Notes: generated by a model not told the origin, from the sequence alone. DNA of 64,000 nt from Candidatus Adlerbacteria bacterium (GCA_028286685.1 JAQBRA010000002.1:1073-65072); one strand, 5' to 3'. Shown: positions 6,416 to 60,942, counted from the first letter of the stretch. A program made the numbers and translations.

Positions 6416-6730
6416 ATGTCCCAACGACACGAACAAATGCAGGAGCGCATGCGCGAAACCGCGGCCGAGTTCTTGGCCCGCGAGTCCAACCGCCAGTCGA
6501 TGGTTACCGTTACTGCTGCTGAAGTGAGCGGCGACGGCAAGCGCGCCCGCATCTACATCACCGTCATGCCCGACGACTACGAGGAGGAGGCGGTCAAGTT
6601 CGCCAACCGCAACAAGCACGAGTTCGGCATGTATCTCCTTAAGAAAGTGCGCGGCATGCGCATCCCGCAGATGGAGTTCGTCATAGACCGCGGCGAGAAG
6701 ATGCGCCAGCGCCTCGACGAGCTTTCGTAA
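6416..6730 (+). CDS. rbfA: Ribosome-binding factor A
   Basis: 104 aa lying directly after infB, the conserved gene order. Contains RbfA-like MVTVTAAEVSGDGKRARIYITV. Confidence 0.85.
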   Translation: MSQRHEQMQERMRETAAEFLARESNRQSMVTVTAAEVSGDGKRARIYITVMPDDYEEEAVKFANRNKHEFGMYLLKKVRGMRIPQMEFVIDRGEKMRQRLDELS

Positions 6731-6761
6731 GCGCCTCTGGTGCGCTAAAGTGTATAAGGTC

Positions 6762-6833
6762 GGCCACGTAGCCAAGTAGAAAGGCGCGGGACTGCAAATC
6801 CTGTATGCGCGGGTGCGATTCCCGCCGTGGCCT
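6762..6833 (+). tRNA. tRNA-Cys(GCA)
   Basis: Cloverleaf by hand: acceptor GGCCACG/CGTGGCC, anticodon stem CGGGA/TCCTG with loop CTGCAAA, T arm GCGGG-TGCGATT-CCCGC, discriminator T. No encoded CCA. The T-loop is atypical (G at position 55). Confidence 0.85.
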
Positions 6834-6837
6834 CAAG
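6822..6837 (+). repeat. Direct repeat DR1 (tRNA-Cys nt 62-73 plus CAAG)
   Basis: CCGCCGTGGCCTCAAG recurs identically at 6990..7005. Confidence 0.9.
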
Positions 6838-7001
6838 GAGAGTATTCGACGCTGGGGCCACGGAGAGAAGCATGGGATGCTTCTCGTCGGGAATCGCAAG
6901 CCGGAGCGGGCCCCATGCCTCTTGGCATGGGAGCGAGGCAGGGCCGTGCGGCACATGATCCAGTGGTATCATGTGAACGCCTGGCCGATCCGCCGTGGCC
7001 T
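6834..7001 (+). ncRNA. tRNA-3'-linked structured element, copy 1 (host tRNA-Cys), full length
   Basis: 22-nt spacer, then GGCCACG (6856..6862, a copy of tRNA nt 1-7) and hairpin 1 at 6865..6885. The 11-mer CGGGAATCGCA (6888..6898) is antisense to tRNA nt 54-64. Conserved blocks follow with hairpin 2 (6912..6931) and hairpin 3 (6952..6975). The element ends GAT+CCGCCGTGGCCT, a copy of tRNA nt 62-73. It has no coding potential, and homologous copies lie at 8003..8133 and 53792..53961. Confidence 0.65.
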
Positions 7002-7005
7002 CAAG
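6990..7005 (+). repeat. Direct repeat DR2 (second copy of tRNA-Cys 3' end plus CAAG)
   Basis: Identical 16-mer to 6822..6837. Confidence 0.9.
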
Positions 7006-7012
7006 TTTATTT

Positions 7013-7096
7013 GCCGGGGTGATGGAATGGTAGACATAGGGGACTTAAAATCCCCAGAGCTAATATCTCGTGTGGGTTCGAGTCCCACCCCCGGCA
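7013..7096 (+). tRNA. tRNA-Leu(TAA)
   Basis: Acceptor GCCGGGG/CCCCGGC, anticodon stem GGGGA/TCCCC with loop CTTAAAA, long variable arm, T arm GTGGG-TTCGAGT-CCCAC, discriminator A. Confidence 0.9.
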
Positions 7097-7101
7097 CCGG
7101 T

Positions 7102-7980
7102 ATGGATTTTTTATACGGAAAGCTAGAGCAAGCACCTGAGGGTTTTTGTCCACCTGAGATGTGGCCTGAGTACGCGATCGTGTCCCAGCCTACCTGGCCC
7201 TGCACAAGCGAAGGTGTAGGCAAGGACCCCAGCGGCGTACGCTGGGGTCTATGGCCCTTTACCTTTGAAGACTACATAAGCGACAAAGAACCAAACCTGC
7301 AGGAGTCGCGCAAAGGCACACTGGCCCGCAATCGCGTTATTACGTGGGAGCGCGTGCGCAAAACCAACATACCCCGGGGATGGATGCAGTTTAGCAGAGC
7401 ACCCTCGCGCATAGATGGCGTTTTATCCCTAGATCAAGATCAGGATTATACCCTTTCATGGAATAAGAATGCCCGCCGCGATTTGCGAATTTTTAAAGAC
7501 AAAGTGGCAAGCGGGCTCTATGCAGTAGTGCCGATTTCAATGGATGCGTTTGCAGGTGCTTACCGACAAAGCCTGATAGCCCAACGTGTTGATCTCCGCC
7601 GCCTCGAGGATCTTGAGCGCAAGTTTGCACATCCAGCCGCGCAAGGACATATAAAATTATGGGGTGTTCGTAACACTCAAACTGATGCCATAGTAGCGGG
7701 CACTGCTATTAATTATTCTCCTACCTATAAAAACTCGACTCATATTGCGCCCTTTATACTTGAGGAAGGGCGCCACCTCTGCGCCGCAACGGGGCTTATT
7801 GACCATTGGTTTGCAGAATCCATAAAACACGGCTGCACTTTTGCAACCACGCTCAACTTTTGGTTTAAGGGCCAGCCCAAAGAGTGGCGCGGGTTTTCTG
7901 AATTCAAATCGCACTTTGGGTTTCAGTTTGTGGCCTATCCACCTCGGCTCTATAAGTTCGTTTTAGGGAAGATTTTTTAA
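7102..7980 (+). CDS. FemAB/CelD-like GNAT-fold (Acetyltransf_6-like) protein
   Basis: The ORF 6805..7980 reads through two tRNAs and the element, so I take the first plausible ATG at 7102 (292 aa). The C-terminal GFSEFKSHFGFQF resembles the x-Y-x-FK-x-x-FG motif of FemAB/BioF2-like acyltransferases. The gene is visibly AT-richer than its flanks. The start is uncertain because no SD is seen. Confidence 0.45.
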   Translation: MDFLYGKLEQAPEGFCPPEMWPEYAIVSQPTWPCTSEGVGKDPSGVRWGLWPFTFEDYISDKEPNLQESRKGTLARNRVITWERVRKTNIPRGWMQFSRAPSRIDGVLSLDQDQDYTLSWNKNARRDLRIFKDKVASGLYAVVPISMDAFAGAYRQSLIAQRVDLRRLEDLERKFAHPAAQGHIKLWGVRNTQTDAIVAGTAINYSPTYKNSTHIAPFILEEGRHLCAATGLIDHWFAESIKHGCTFATTLNFWFKGQPKEWRGFSEFKSHFGFQFVAYPPRLYKFVLGKIF

Positions 7981-8002
7981 ATTTTTAGTATTTCGCACTA
8001 GT

Positions 8003-8133
8003 GGTCAGGCGTTCAACATGCGCCGTCGCACACATTGCCGCACGACCCTGCCTCGCCGTCCTGCAAGCGTAGGACATGGCTCCGGCTCGCACACAAGCAG
8101 AAAGCCTCCCGCAGGGGAGGCTTTCTGCTTGTG
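8003..8133 (-). ncRNA. tRNA-3'-linked structured element, copy 2 (host tRNA-Lys), core-only variant
   Basis: Read on the minus strand after tRNA-Lys, a 22-bp perfect hairpin comes first. Then follow GAGCCGGAGC, hairpin GTCCT/AGGAC, CGAGGCAGGGTCGTGCGGC, hairpin AATGTGTGC/GCGCATGTT and GAACGCCTGACC. It lacks the tRNA-antisense segments and the clear 3' direct repeat. Confidence 0.55.
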
Positions 8134-8136
8134 TGC
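8089..8136. repeat. 48-nt perfect palindrome (22-bp stem, 4-nt loop) abutting the tRNA-Lys 3' end
   Basis: GCACACAAGCAGAAAGCCTCCC GCAG GGGAGGCTTTCTGCTTGTGTGC. The last 3 nt overlap the tRNA-Lys 3' terminus. Confidence 0.9.
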
Positions 8137-8206
8137 GCCTACCTGGATTCGAACCAGGGACAATCTCCTTAAGAGGGAGCTGCTCTACCAACTGAGCTAT
8201 AGGCGC
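8134..8206 (-). tRNA. tRNA-Lys(CTT)
   Basis: Reverse complement GCGCCTA-TA-GCTC-AGTTGGTA-GAGC-A-GCTCC-CTCTTAA-GGAGA-TTGTC-CCTGG-TTCGAAT-CCAGG-TAGGCGC-A. Confidence 0.88.
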
Positions 8207-8335
8207 GAGTGAGGCTGGCACCAGGAATTCGTTCCTGATTGCCCGAACGAGCGGCCTATATGATTTCTCATATAGGCGCATCCGAACAGGAAAAATATAG
8301 CATAAAAATGGCTTTGCGCATAGAATGGCGATATC

Positions 8336-8427: not shown

Positions 8428-8465
8428 AAGCTAAAATCCCCTTTATTTTAAGGGGATTTTAGCTT
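8428..8465 (+). terminator. Hairpin terminator after tRNA-Leu(TAG)
   Basis: AAGCTAAAATCCCCTT-TATTTT-AAGGGGATTTTAGCTT is a 16-bp perfect stem with a U-rich 3' arm. Confidence 0.6.
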
Positions 8466-8491
8466 GACAAACCCATACAATATGATATAAT
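8464..8491 (+). promoter_or_regulatory. Sigma70-like promoter for the SPFH operon
   Basis: TTGACA (8464..8469), 16-nt spacer, TATAAT (8486..8491), about 80 nt upstream of the ATG at 8574. Confidence 0.6.
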
Positions 8492-50880: not shown

Positions 50881-50890
50881 GTTCTAGCCA

Positions 50891-50930
50891 TAAAGTAAAA
50901 GACCTGCCGCAGGGCAGGTCTTTTACTTTA
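50891..50930. terminator. Bidirectional terminator
   Basis: TAAAGTAAAAGACCTGCC-GCAG-GGCAGGTCTTTTACTTTA is an 18-bp perfect stem between hsp20 (+) and tRNA-Phe (-). Confidence 0.8.
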
Positions 50931-51006
50931 TGGTGCTTGGGGCCGGGCTCGAACCGGCGACATCTTCCTCTTCAGGGAAGCGCTCTACCAACTGAGCTAC
51001 CCAAGC
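50931..51006 (-). tRNA. tRNA-Phe(GAA), CCA encoded
   Basis: Reverse complement GCTTGGG-TA-GCTC-AGTTGGTA-GAGC-G-CTTCC-CTGAAGA-GGAAG-ATGTC-GCCGG-TTCGAGC-CCGGC-CCCAAGC-A-CCA. Confidence 0.9.
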
Positions 51007-53715: not shown

Positions 53716-53791
53716 GTGCGGAATAGAAGCTGGGACTTATATTCCTTCCCTCGCTCGCAAATAATAGCGGGCTTTATTTGTCTCACTCGGG
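53716..53791 (-). other. Decayed remnant of a further tRNA-linked element copy
   Basis: Minus sense contains GCGAGCGAGG (block-2 fragment) and ends ...CTTCT-ATTCCGCA-C, a third copy of the tRNA-Gly acceptor 3' strand. It begins with CCGAG, like the spacer after tRNA-Gly. Confidence 0.35.
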
Positions 53792-53803
53792 TGCGGAATG
53801 GGA
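53790..53803 (-). repeat. Direct repeat (distal copy of tRNA-Gly nt 62-73 plus CC)
   Basis: Plus-strand GGTGCGGAATGGGA is identical to 53960..53973. The similarity continues (CTCGG vs CTCGGG) with a 1-nt indel. Confidence 0.85.
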
Positions 53804-53961
53804 ATCGGTCAGGCGTTCGTATAATGCCGTCGCATTATACGCCGCACGACCCTGCCTCGCTCCCGTGCCCGCTGGCACGGGGCCCGCTCCGGCTTTCGAT
53901 TCTCCACACAACCCGCCCCGCGGGTCGTTCATTCCGCACTCTTGTCACTATAGTTCCTCGG
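53792..53961 (-). ncRNA. tRNA-3'-linked structured element, copy 3 (host tRNA-Gly), full length
   Basis: In minus sense a 23-nt spacer comes first. Then follow TGCGGAAT (53938..53931), hairpin 1 ACGACCCGC-GGG-GCGGGTTGT, and GGAGAATCGAA (53905..53895, antisense to tRNA-Gly nt 54-64). The core is the same 99 nt as copy 1, and the element ends GAT+TCCCATTCCGCA. Confidence 0.65.
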
Positions 53962-53973
53962 TGCGGAATGGGA
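53960..53973 (-). repeat. Direct repeat (proximal copy, inside tRNA-Gly 3' end)
   Basis: Identical 14-mer to 53790..53803. Confidence 0.85.
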
Positions 53974-54032
53974 GAATCGAACTCCCGCCCGTTGCTTGGG
54001 AAGCAACTGTTCTACCACTAAACCAATTCCGC
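53962..54032 (-). tRNA. tRNA-Gly(CCC)
   Basis: Reverse complement GCGGAAT-TG-GTTT-AGTGGTA-GAAC-A-GTTGC-TTCCCAA-GCAAC-GGGC-GGGAG-TTCGATT-CTCCC-ATTCCGC-A. Confidence 0.9.
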
Positions 54033-60649: not shown

Positions 60650-60942
60650 ATTTAGCGCGCGCGTCTGTAAGCCGAGTTCTGTCGTGGGCTGCAATTTATC
60701 TGGGCCCAGAGTCGCCCCTGGGCTCGAGCGGCACTCCGCAGTTGCCTGCGGCACGGCCTTGCACCCGGGTAGGGATTTTGCCGTTTCACCCGAACTAAAT
60801 CGGTTCGTCACTGTTCGCACCCCTTACGACCGCTAATATCGTACGGCAGGCGTTACCTGCTACCTTGCTACTGCAGTTGCCCGCAGTGGGAGCTCGGACT
60901 TTCCTCTCCGTCTTGCGACAGAGCTGCAACCAAACGCGCTTT
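60650..60942 (-). ncRNA. rnpB: RNase P RNA (bacterial type A, compact)
   Basis: Minus sense contains the universally conserved GAGAGGAAAGTCCGAGCTCC (P4 5' strand) and ACAGAACTCGGCTTACAG (P4 3' strand). The ends are estimated from P1/P2-like pairing and are approximate. Confidence 0.85.

Follow-up and report, generated by a model that had tools for sequence, protein, structure and literature searches.

Elements that integrate into tRNA genes are bounded by attL and attR sites, and a T-loop sublocation of the target is reportedly found among them. The segment analyzed here (positions 6856 to 6898) resembles such sites in its setting. It belongs to a small module downstream of a tRNA-Cys gene in a 64,000-nt stretch of Candidatus Adlerbacteria DNA (GCA_028286685.1, JAQBRA010000002.1:1073-65072; here called the window), where a direct repeat spans the T-loop through the tRNA 3' end plus a few bases and the tRNA itself is intact. 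Unlike tRNA-integrating elements, however, the module has an insert of ~150 to 200 nt, lacks an integrase, always carries an inverted copy as well, presents one core at the tRNAs of 19 amino acids, and includes local trailer sequence in its repeat.

Group I introns are abundant in the tRNA genes of Patescibacteria (PMC13011429), and group II introns have been reported absent from these bacteria (PMC13011429). The module is like a group I intron in that a single antisense strand has alternate upstream and downstream target copies, as does the internal guide sequence in the P1/P10 exchange. Its core is nevertheless far too small and sits after a complete tRNA, not inside the gene, and Rfam scans of the window and of the arrays at locus L015 (L numbers denote individual loci) gave no match to Intron_gpI. 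Because the first copy completes the tRNA, the element needs no splicing. Class C group II introns, which insert after terminator hairpins, have a parallel in one class of module (type B, described below), whose core lies at the 3' foot of a terminator-like hairpin and whose unit often starts with GUGCG. In contrast to those introns, the module has no domain V/VI and no reverse transcriptase, and its GUGNN start varies (GUGGA, GUGCU, GUGGU). GUGCG was rejected as the 5' end of a group II intron, since the bases differ according to the tRNA end.

Riboswitches and attenuators share with the module an X, X', X arrangement around a conserved folded domain closed by P1. The module differs from them in lying downstream of a tRNA, in having arms that copy the neighboring gene, and in its arrays, decay, and presence/absence variation. 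A likeness to the bridge (seek) RNAs of IS110/IS1111, in which bipartite guide segments surround an internal stem-loop, had been raised in the first-pass annotation of this locus. It goes no further than that outline: both segments of the module pair with the same strand and form one contiguous antisense, whereas bridge guides pair with opposite strands around a core dinucleotide, and there is no donor loop, no Rfam link, and no DEDD recombinase family within 3 kb of ~150 loci. Retroviral and LTR primer-binding sites also show ~18 nt of complementarity to one particular tRNA at its 3' end. Here, by contrast, the complement is that of the gene or precursor (with trailer, and without added CCA unless CCA is encoded), is split by a hairpin, adjoins its own tRNA gene, and is not accompanied by a reverse transcriptase. 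A full-text search of the literature returned no description of the element, only unrelated anticodon-loop group I introns of Patescibacteria. It is apparently of a new kind, set apart by the combination of a protein-free core, inverted and direct tRNA copies, and a spread over nearly all tRNA species.

Three module copies in the window

The first-pass annotation had described two full-length copies, following tRNA-Cys and tRNA-Gly. Both stand, and the count rises to three with a copy on the minus strand behind tRNA-Lys(CTT), which is of type B. The parts of each copy are listed here, with core scores from R1, a covariance model built from 49 copies.

6762 to 6833, plus strand: host tRNA-Cys(GCA) (ARAGORN and the Rfam tRNA model, 63 bits); nt 54 to 73 are the copied sequence
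6834 to 6855, plus strand: linker of the Cys copy, 22 nt, C74 and trailer; its first 4 nt (CAAG) recur after the tail
6856 to 6862, plus strand: 5' antisense segment of the Cys copy, GGCCACG, reverse complement of tRNA nt 66 to 72; GA follows
6865 to 6885, plus strand: hairpin 2 of the Cys copy, GAGAAGCAT-GGG-ATGCTTCTC, 9 bp with a GGG loop; GT follows
6888 to 6898, plus strand: 3' antisense segment of the Cys copy, CGGGAATCGCA, 11 nt, exact reverse complement of tRNA nt 54 to 64, abutting the core
6899 to 6986, plus strand: conserved core of the Cys copy (R1, 96.5 bits; covariation)
6986 to 7005, plus strand: tail of the Cys copy, CGAT-CCGCCGTGGCCTCAAG, direct copy of tRNA nt 56 to 73 plus trailer CAAG
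53961 to 54032, minus strand: host tRNA-Gly(CCC) (ARAGORN and the Rfam tRNA model)
53895 to 53938, minus strand: split antisense segment of the Gly copy, consisting of TGCGGAAT (nt 66 to 73; 53938-53931), GA, a hairpin (53928-53908), GT, and GGAGAATCGAA (nt 54 to 64; 53905-53895)
53807 to 53894, minus strand: core of the Gly copy (R1, 114 bits)
53786 to 53807, minus strand: tail of the Gly copy, repeating tRNA nt 56 to 73 and trailer CCCGAG, with 2 nt deleted
8134 to 8206, minus strand: host tRNA-Lys(CTT) (ARAGORN and the Rfam tRNA model)
8088 to 8135, minus strand: long type-B hairpin of the Lys copy; the 5' strand begins at tRNA C72, and the 3' strand ends in GTGTGCG, antisense to nt 70 to 76
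8003 to 8087, minus strand: core of the Lys copy (R1, 96.8 bits); hairpin and core together span 8135-8001
7993 to 8003, minus strand: tail of the Lys copy, CAC (copy of C72-A73-C74), TA, and GTGCGA, the stump of a further unit's start

As originally described, the 11-mers of the Cys and Gly copies are exact reverse complements of nt 54 to 64 of the adjacent tRNA, with the unusual G55 of tRNA-Cys mirrored in its 11-mer, and the shorter segments complement nt 66 to 72 (Cys) and 66 to 73 (Gly). Two further points of that description are borne out: the predicted fold is a three-way junction, and the module's 3' end duplicates the tRNA 3' end and is able to pair with the segment. In the Cys and Gly copies this repeat runs from C56 to 4 to 6 nt past the tRNA. 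Hairpin 2 of the Cys copy branches at the T-stem/acceptor boundary, and the discriminator of its tRNA is the U at 6833. Past a spacer A, the Cys core comprises a P2 helix (GCC-GGA-GC ... GC-GA-GGC) carrying a variable hairpin and a P3 helix (GGCCG ... UGGCC) carrying a long hairpin. Two nucleotides have been deleted from the T-stem part of the Cys tail, and tRNA-Leu(TAA) starts at 7013, 8 nt past the module. The tail is intact in L130, a close relative of the window's Gly copy. In the Lys copy, the antisense covers only nt 70 to 74 and trailer. Identity between the Cys and Gly cores, first put at about 90%, is 78% over 88 nt; the differences fall in two hairpins and are largely compensatory.

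Scanning the full 64,000 nt with R1 recovered the three known copies only, which places the module at 3 of the window's 11 tRNAs. All window modules fold far better than shuffled sequence (z = -4.4 to -6.7). Within the window, no promoter-like or terminator-like site was found between tRNA and core. The window also encodes a reduced IF-2, RbfA, and a short RNase P RNA; these, together with the record titles of the genome matches, underlie the assignment to Patescibacteria.

Family size and host range

A pattern scan of species-representative genomes gave 53 loci, of which ~47 are genuine. The genuine matches all come from metagenome-assembled genomes of Patescibacteria, labeled in their records as Adlerbacteria, Kaiserbacteria, Nomurabacteria, Paceibacterota, or "Saccharibacteria." Rescanning the species-representative loci with R1 added more divergent copies. 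From metagenomes, the pattern scan yielded at least 120 loci, and R1 confirmed at least 93 copies, at GC contents from 40 to 76%. Together, the pattern and covariance-model searches revealed more than 150 further copies beyond the window. The host tRNAs, among the matches listed, span 19 amino acids. Nearly all copies with enough upstream sequence lie just 3' of a tRNA on the same strand, often between two tRNAs. Loci were gathered through the core motif, and the tRNA statistics are therefore not genome-wide.

Viral contigs contained three pattern matches, none near a tRNA and none confirmed by the covariance model. All-against-all clustering of the 1,505 open reading frames within 3 kb of ~150 loci revealed no linked protein family, only housekeeping or spurious clusters. 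Rfam 15 has no family for the module: at gathering score, the window matched only tRNA and RNase P, and a permissive scan (E ≤ 10) of window positions 6700-7150 and of the L015 arrays gave no module match.

The arms follow the upstream tRNA by a positional rule

A single strict rule, drawn from 106 tRNA-linked copies among the matches listed, relates both flanks of the core to the adjacent tRNA. Just 5' of the core, beyond a single spacer A, the bases form the reverse complement of the tRNA that lies upstream. The tail, which follows ...UGAC, is a direct repeat of the same tRNA, and its start is offset by 2 nt from that of the antisense (counting the shared C). Among the matches listed, the antisense begins opposite nt 54 and the tail at nt 56 in 44 copies (type A), and type B consists of 43 copies that begin opposite nt 70 with the tail at nt 72 and 10 that begin opposite nt 72 with the tail at nt 74. 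The two additional antisense bases (54-55 or 70-71), which the tail lacks, covary with the tRNA: CA occurs against the UG of Cys and Met and AA against UU, with CG, CU, GA, or GU for acceptor ends.

Specificity for the neighboring tRNA was also evident from comparison with other tRNAs. In type-A members, cognate matches at T-stem nt 61 to 65 averaged 4.0 of 5, against 2.7 for noncognate pairs, and at least seven of eight acceptor positions matched in 17 of 46 cognate pairs versus 76 of 1,988 noncognate ones. An exact antisense 7-mer of nt 70 to 76 occurred downstream of 59 of 119 module-bearing tRNAs but only 7 of 127 module-less tRNAs, and several of those seven are degenerate modules. Given this difference and the 106-copy rule, the prediction that the segments always match the upstream tRNA holds; it did so in every informative member.

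The rest of the layout is far less constant. Hairpin 2 and the 5' segment, which had seemed part of a fixed design, are both absent in some members, such as L068, L002, L079, and L137. Type B, to which the Lys copy of the window belongs and which makes up about half of the family, has no T-arm antisense. The far end of the antisense run varies from nt 63 to nt 70, and some members have no gap or an overlap. Since the run can end anywhere in that range, nt 65 is not a conserved unpaired target, and the H/ACA-like pocket proposed at that position does not survive the comparison. The 5' half of the split segment belongs to the foot of the trailer/terminator hairpin: where a long terminator-like hairpin comes after the tRNA, as in L008, L019, L038, L085, and L020, its 3' foot supplies the 5' segment and reaches into the 3' strand of the acceptor. 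The type-B core begins precisely where a terminator-like hairpin has its 3' foot, and GUGCG is a frequent start of the unit. The inverted copy can pair with the tail, forming P1, or equally with the 3' part of the real tRNA.

A decayed tRNA copy was considered as the source of the segment and is excluded, because the segment is truly antisense. It is complementary to asymmetric T-loops (Cys, Gly, Asp, Met, Val-CAC) and does not repeat them in sense orientation; it extends to bases complementary to the discriminator, to +1, or to a CCA where one is encoded; and it has an A opposite U71 in a tRNA-Glu with a G2.U71 pair. Hairpin 2, moreover, is unrelated to the tRNA arms. RNase III-type maturation at a 2-nt offset was likewise rejected: it fits only the nt-72 class, with a cut at 73/74, and would cut inside the tRNA in the nt-70 and nt-54 classes.

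Several loci depart from the standard architecture. A subset of type-A tails (L039 4931-5110; L020, L032, L085, L134, L102, L064, L058) is interrupted directly behind CGA(U), so that an additional small hairpin or GCGUACUCGC-like motif separates the core from the remaining tRNA copy. Other loci (L137 at tRNA-Glu and tRNA-Val GAC, L114 at tRNA-Lys TTT, L037/L031, L147, and L093) have the same architecture, with antisense to nt 54 to 64, an insert, and a copy of nt 55/56 to 73, around inserts that R1 does not match; some of these keep a GACG-capped hairpin, and others seem unrelated. The family, or the mechanism that installs it, extends beyond the core studied here. L072 is a core-deleted remnant.

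A covarying core

The core (~88 nt) is a predicted three-way junction, and its helices covary strongly on the tRNA-sense strand. P1 is formed by the flanks, the inverted and direct tRNA copies, and closes the core. P2 has the consensus G-S-C / GGA / GC ... GC / GA / G-S-C and carries the variable hairpin, while P3 (GGGUCG ... UGACC) has internal loops and a long hairpin that is usually GACG capped. In a MAFFT alignment, 95.5% of core cells can pair, with both-side changes in 23 pairs; in a model-fitted alignment of 106 sequences, the values are 93.1% and 34 of 36 pairs. None of 500 shuffles, and no slid register, reached the observed pairing. Wobble pairs in the core helices are strongly asymmetric, with 69 G.U versus 12 A.C (an invariant G.U pair was left out of the count). 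This places selection for the structure on the tRNA-sense strand, acting on RNA or possibly on single-stranded DNA. The core is conserved across GC contents from 40 to 76%.

Lying directly downstream of tRNA genes, often between two, the core is very probably transcribed with them. Many type-A copies have an intrinsic-terminator-like hairpin between tRNA and element, so transcription may be low. As an observation apart, the trailer and terminator hairpins of many loci (L012, L030, L043, L101, L125, L138, L072, and others) share recurrent sequences and loops, with forms such as GCAAA-CUGC-UUUGC, CCUGCC-CUGC-GGCAGG, UUGA, and GGG, which suggests that they too are a repeated unit.

We compared the core with known structured RNAs and found no match. 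A retron noncoding RNA was rejected, since despite inverted arms there is no linked reverse transcriptase and there are many copies per genome. No known self-cleaving ribozyme class of Rfam matched window positions 6700-7150 or the L015 arrays. 5S rRNA, SRP RNA, 6S RNA, retron, hammerhead, and hairpin ribozyme fit neither by consensus sequence nor by Rfam. A K-turn reading of the GGA/GA loop fails on a bulge of 1 nt instead of 3. An H/ACA guide is disfavored, because no target nucleotide is left unpaired at a fixed place and the core alignments contain no ACA or ANANNA box with conserved spacing. A box C/D guide was also rejected, as CUGA is base-paired inside P3 (CCUGACC) and no C box is conserved.

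Filled and empty sites, arrays, and possible exchange between cores

Orthologous intergenic sites occur in filled and empty states. The site between tRNA-Cys and tRNA-Leu(TAA) is filled in the window and empty in L017, and that between tRNA-Arg(GCG) and tRNA-Arg(CCG) is filled in L049 and empty in L007. At the tRNA-Phe site, L006 has hairpin and core, the window has the hairpin without the core, and L012 is empty, with a different terminator. The window's version (50886-51006, minus strand) is a core-less type-B site, a long hairpin after tRNA-Phe with its foot paired with the encoded CCA. At filled sites, the ancestral downstream flank is continuous with the tail and not with the first copy.

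Cores and their surroundings do not always travel together. Two copies in one genome, at tRNA-Arg (L004) and tRNA-Ala (L033), have cores that are 98% identical in their variable hairpins, and their flanking hairpins are unrelated; core variants do not follow tRNA type. The window's Gly copy and L130 have arms and hairpin 2 in common and differ in P3, and the P3 of L130 is that of unrelated copies, which suggests exchange between cores. Tandem arrays without intervening tRNAs occur in L015, L034, L025, L033, L035, L040, and L016, and there are partial units as well. At the same time, copies at orthologous tRNAs persist across genomes, at tRNA-Ser-GCT in L008, L024, and L046 and at tRNA-Cys in the window, L041, L028, and L139. 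This persistence, together with strong conservation of the core over GC contents of 40 to 76%, argues for some function and is as compatible with a role in the host as with a selfish element.

One locus displays a longer succession of duplications. In L039 (3783-5110), tRNA-Glu is followed by ~1 kb with open reading frames, a decayed second copy of its 3' end, a terminator, antisense, core, and a third copy. The 3' end of a single tRNA-Glu has thus been duplicated in nested fashion, in an order that L020 and L032 share.

Origin of the arms and alternative explanations

Although 87 to 93% of antisense:tRNA positions are Watson-Crick, the mismatches lack a wobble preference (10 G.U versus 17 A.C, small counts), against 69 versus 12 in the core helices, which does not support a selected RNA duplex with the tRNA. 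A wobble bias within P1 is seen only in the three core-adjacent pairs (12 versus 3). In intact copies, the direct repeat extends past the antisense-pairable span into the local trailer: it reaches from nt 56 to +10/+11 in L131, L068, and L124 and to +8 in L103, compared with +4 to +6 in the window, and in L068 similarity goes on for ~14 nt beyond the repeat. Many tails are cut off after nt 63 to 65 or have deletions (as do both the Cys and Gly copies of the window) or insertions. Among the matches listed, ~30 of 46 type-A tails keep the acceptor part, and about a third have lost it. Because the arms lack a wobble signal, the repeat enters the trailer, and the tails are decayed, both arms appear to be copies of the local gene that decayed later. 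The sequence patterns thus indicate that RNA-level selection holds only the core and a short P1.

Based on these results, we favor the view, with a probability of roughly 0.5, that the segment forms the left arm, derived from tRNA, of a structured RNA element of Patescibacteria that is apparently undescribed, multicopy, self-duplicating or mobile, and embedded in tRNA operons, with a P1 made from copied tRNA sequence. Its antisense and direct flanks look like an installation footprint, not a programmable guide. Installation or duplication of the element would include copying the arms from the target at hand, with no base-by-base tuning, and the host tRNA would be kept intact because the element brings a replacement 3' end or leaves the original one. 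Thereafter, the arms would decay while the core and a few adjacent P1 pairs stay under RNA-level selection, and cores would then spread or homogenize between tRNA loci and form tandem arrays. A counterpoint is that type-A arms are split by a hairpin, which simple fold-back copying does not explain. We found no autonomous copy of the element and no installing enzyme or mechanism. More tentatively, a structured RNA without protein genes, perhaps a ribozyme of a new kind or a mobile unit templated by RNA, might install itself at tRNA 3' ends by copying the target once inverted and once direct at the fixed 2-nt offset; it would thereby retarget automatically to any tRNA and leave that tRNA functional. 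With tRNA 3' part, antisense, and spare copy, the precursor would then be a three-strand system that could also allow strand exchange. The constant offset is what would be expected if the core were joined to a duplex end bearing a 3' overhang of 2 nt.

The same features bear on two explanations that assign the RNA a role in its host. We consider it rather unlikely that the module is a stable small RNA riding on tRNA operons, whose core is a trans-acting RNA or RNP component and whose tRNA-derived arms serve as an acceptor/T-stem minihelix, or as a simple P1, for trimming by RNase P, RNase Z, or the CCA enzyme. Placement between tRNAs in polycistrons favors this idea, and so do the purifying selection that acts strongly on the core and the folding of the module alone, in which the 5' segment pairs with the tail; dosage would rise through tandem arrays, and about two-thirds of type-A tails still reach the discriminator. 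The tRNA-like acceptor stem and discriminator envisaged earlier are indeed present in the window's Cys and Gly copies. However, about a third of type-A tails have lost them with the acceptor part, an acceptor mimic is missing from type B altogether, and the 5' segment is mostly degenerate (at least seven of eight matches in 17 of 46). The element also occurs at some tRNAs only, varying between relatives, and the T-loop for elbow recognition by RNase P is replaced by a helix. We give somewhat less credence to a cis-acting conformational switch that gates tRNA 3' maturation, in which X' pairs either with the tRNA 3' part and trailer, hiding the tRNA end, or with the tail, leaving the core folded and the tRNA free, the balance being set by core folding or factor binding. 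The X, X', X layout is classic for mutually exclusive helices, and the antisense reaches 2 nt beyond the span that the tail can pair. Nearest-neighbor folding of the read-through transcript prefers the swapped fold (antisense with tRNA nt 54 to 73, tail with the 5' acceptor strand of the tRNA) by 10.5 (Cys), 13.8 (Gly), and 4.8 (Lys) kcal/mol, a range of 5 to 14 kcal/mol that leaves aside tRNA tertiary structure, modifications, and cotranscriptional order. Exchange is possible by these energies, which do not in themselves mean that it occurs. Yet the X':tRNA duplex has no wobble signature, the tRNA folds ahead of X' transcription, and X' is often preceded by terminator-like hairpins. Decayed tails, arrays, and presence/absence variation would also be odd for a regulator, and only 3 of 11 tRNAs in the window have the module.

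Two further readings are disfavored. It is improbable that the modules are scars of integrase-mediated insertion, with the direct repeats as attL/attR blocks and the core as an arm region left after island loss. Type A has the repeat geometry of an att site, with a span from the T-loop to a few nucleotides past the tRNA end that matches the T-loop sublocation of tRNA-integrating elements, and the nested tRNA-Glu 3'-end duplications around a ~1-kb insert in L039 are also in its favor. But the same core is found at dozens of different tRNAs in an element of ~170 nt, with no linked integrase within 3 kb of ~150 loci; the repeat includes the local trailer and in type B is merely ~3 to 8 nt; and there is an inverted copy in every case, together with RNA-strand covariation in the core. 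Lower still is our estimate for a guide RNA, acting in trans or cis, through which the tRNA would be modified or cleaved at nt 65 in an H/ACA-like, C/D-like, or EGS-like manner. The 18 to 19 nt of complementarity and the hairpin opposite nt 65 in two window copies suggested it, but members do not share the pocket, T-arm antisense is missing from type B, wobble tolerance is absent, and the target region is buried in the folded tRNA; nor is there an ACA box, C/D boxes, or a 3' RCCA after the antisense.

As the arm of a self-duplicating element or otherwise, the segment belongs to a family that would be a widespread, conserved addition to the barely charted noncoding RNAs of the candidate phyla radiation and that explains recurrent unannotated DNA and spurious open reading frames beside tRNA genes. 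Its fixed geometry, with antisense from nt 54, 70, or 72 and a spare copy 2 nt later, points to a copying or insertion mechanism without a described counterpart. A catalytic or mobile core would make this a naturally occurring system able to retarget itself by templating on its target; if the core is a host RNA, it would be a new abundant partner of tRNA operons in minimal-genome organisms.

Other features of the window

Some further features of the window were noted. A bacterial RNase P RNA of class A lies at 60652-60942 (minus strand); at 291 nt and 104.8 bits, near the gathering score of 100, it is a reduced version. A perfect 12/12 match to a sigma-70-type promoter, with an extended -10 TG, lies at 8464-8491 (plus strand), just past the bidirectional terminator hairpin (8438-8455) that follows tRNA-Leu(TAG). 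Most tRNA genes of the window lack an encoded CCA, which is present in tRNA-Ser(CGA) and tRNA-Phe only, and the base after the discriminator is usually C. Open reading frames run through tRNAs and modules at 6805-7980 and 6813-7022 on the plus strand and at 6681-6956, 6745-6972, and 7985-8281 on the minus strand; their tRNA and module parts are noncoding and could be misannotated.
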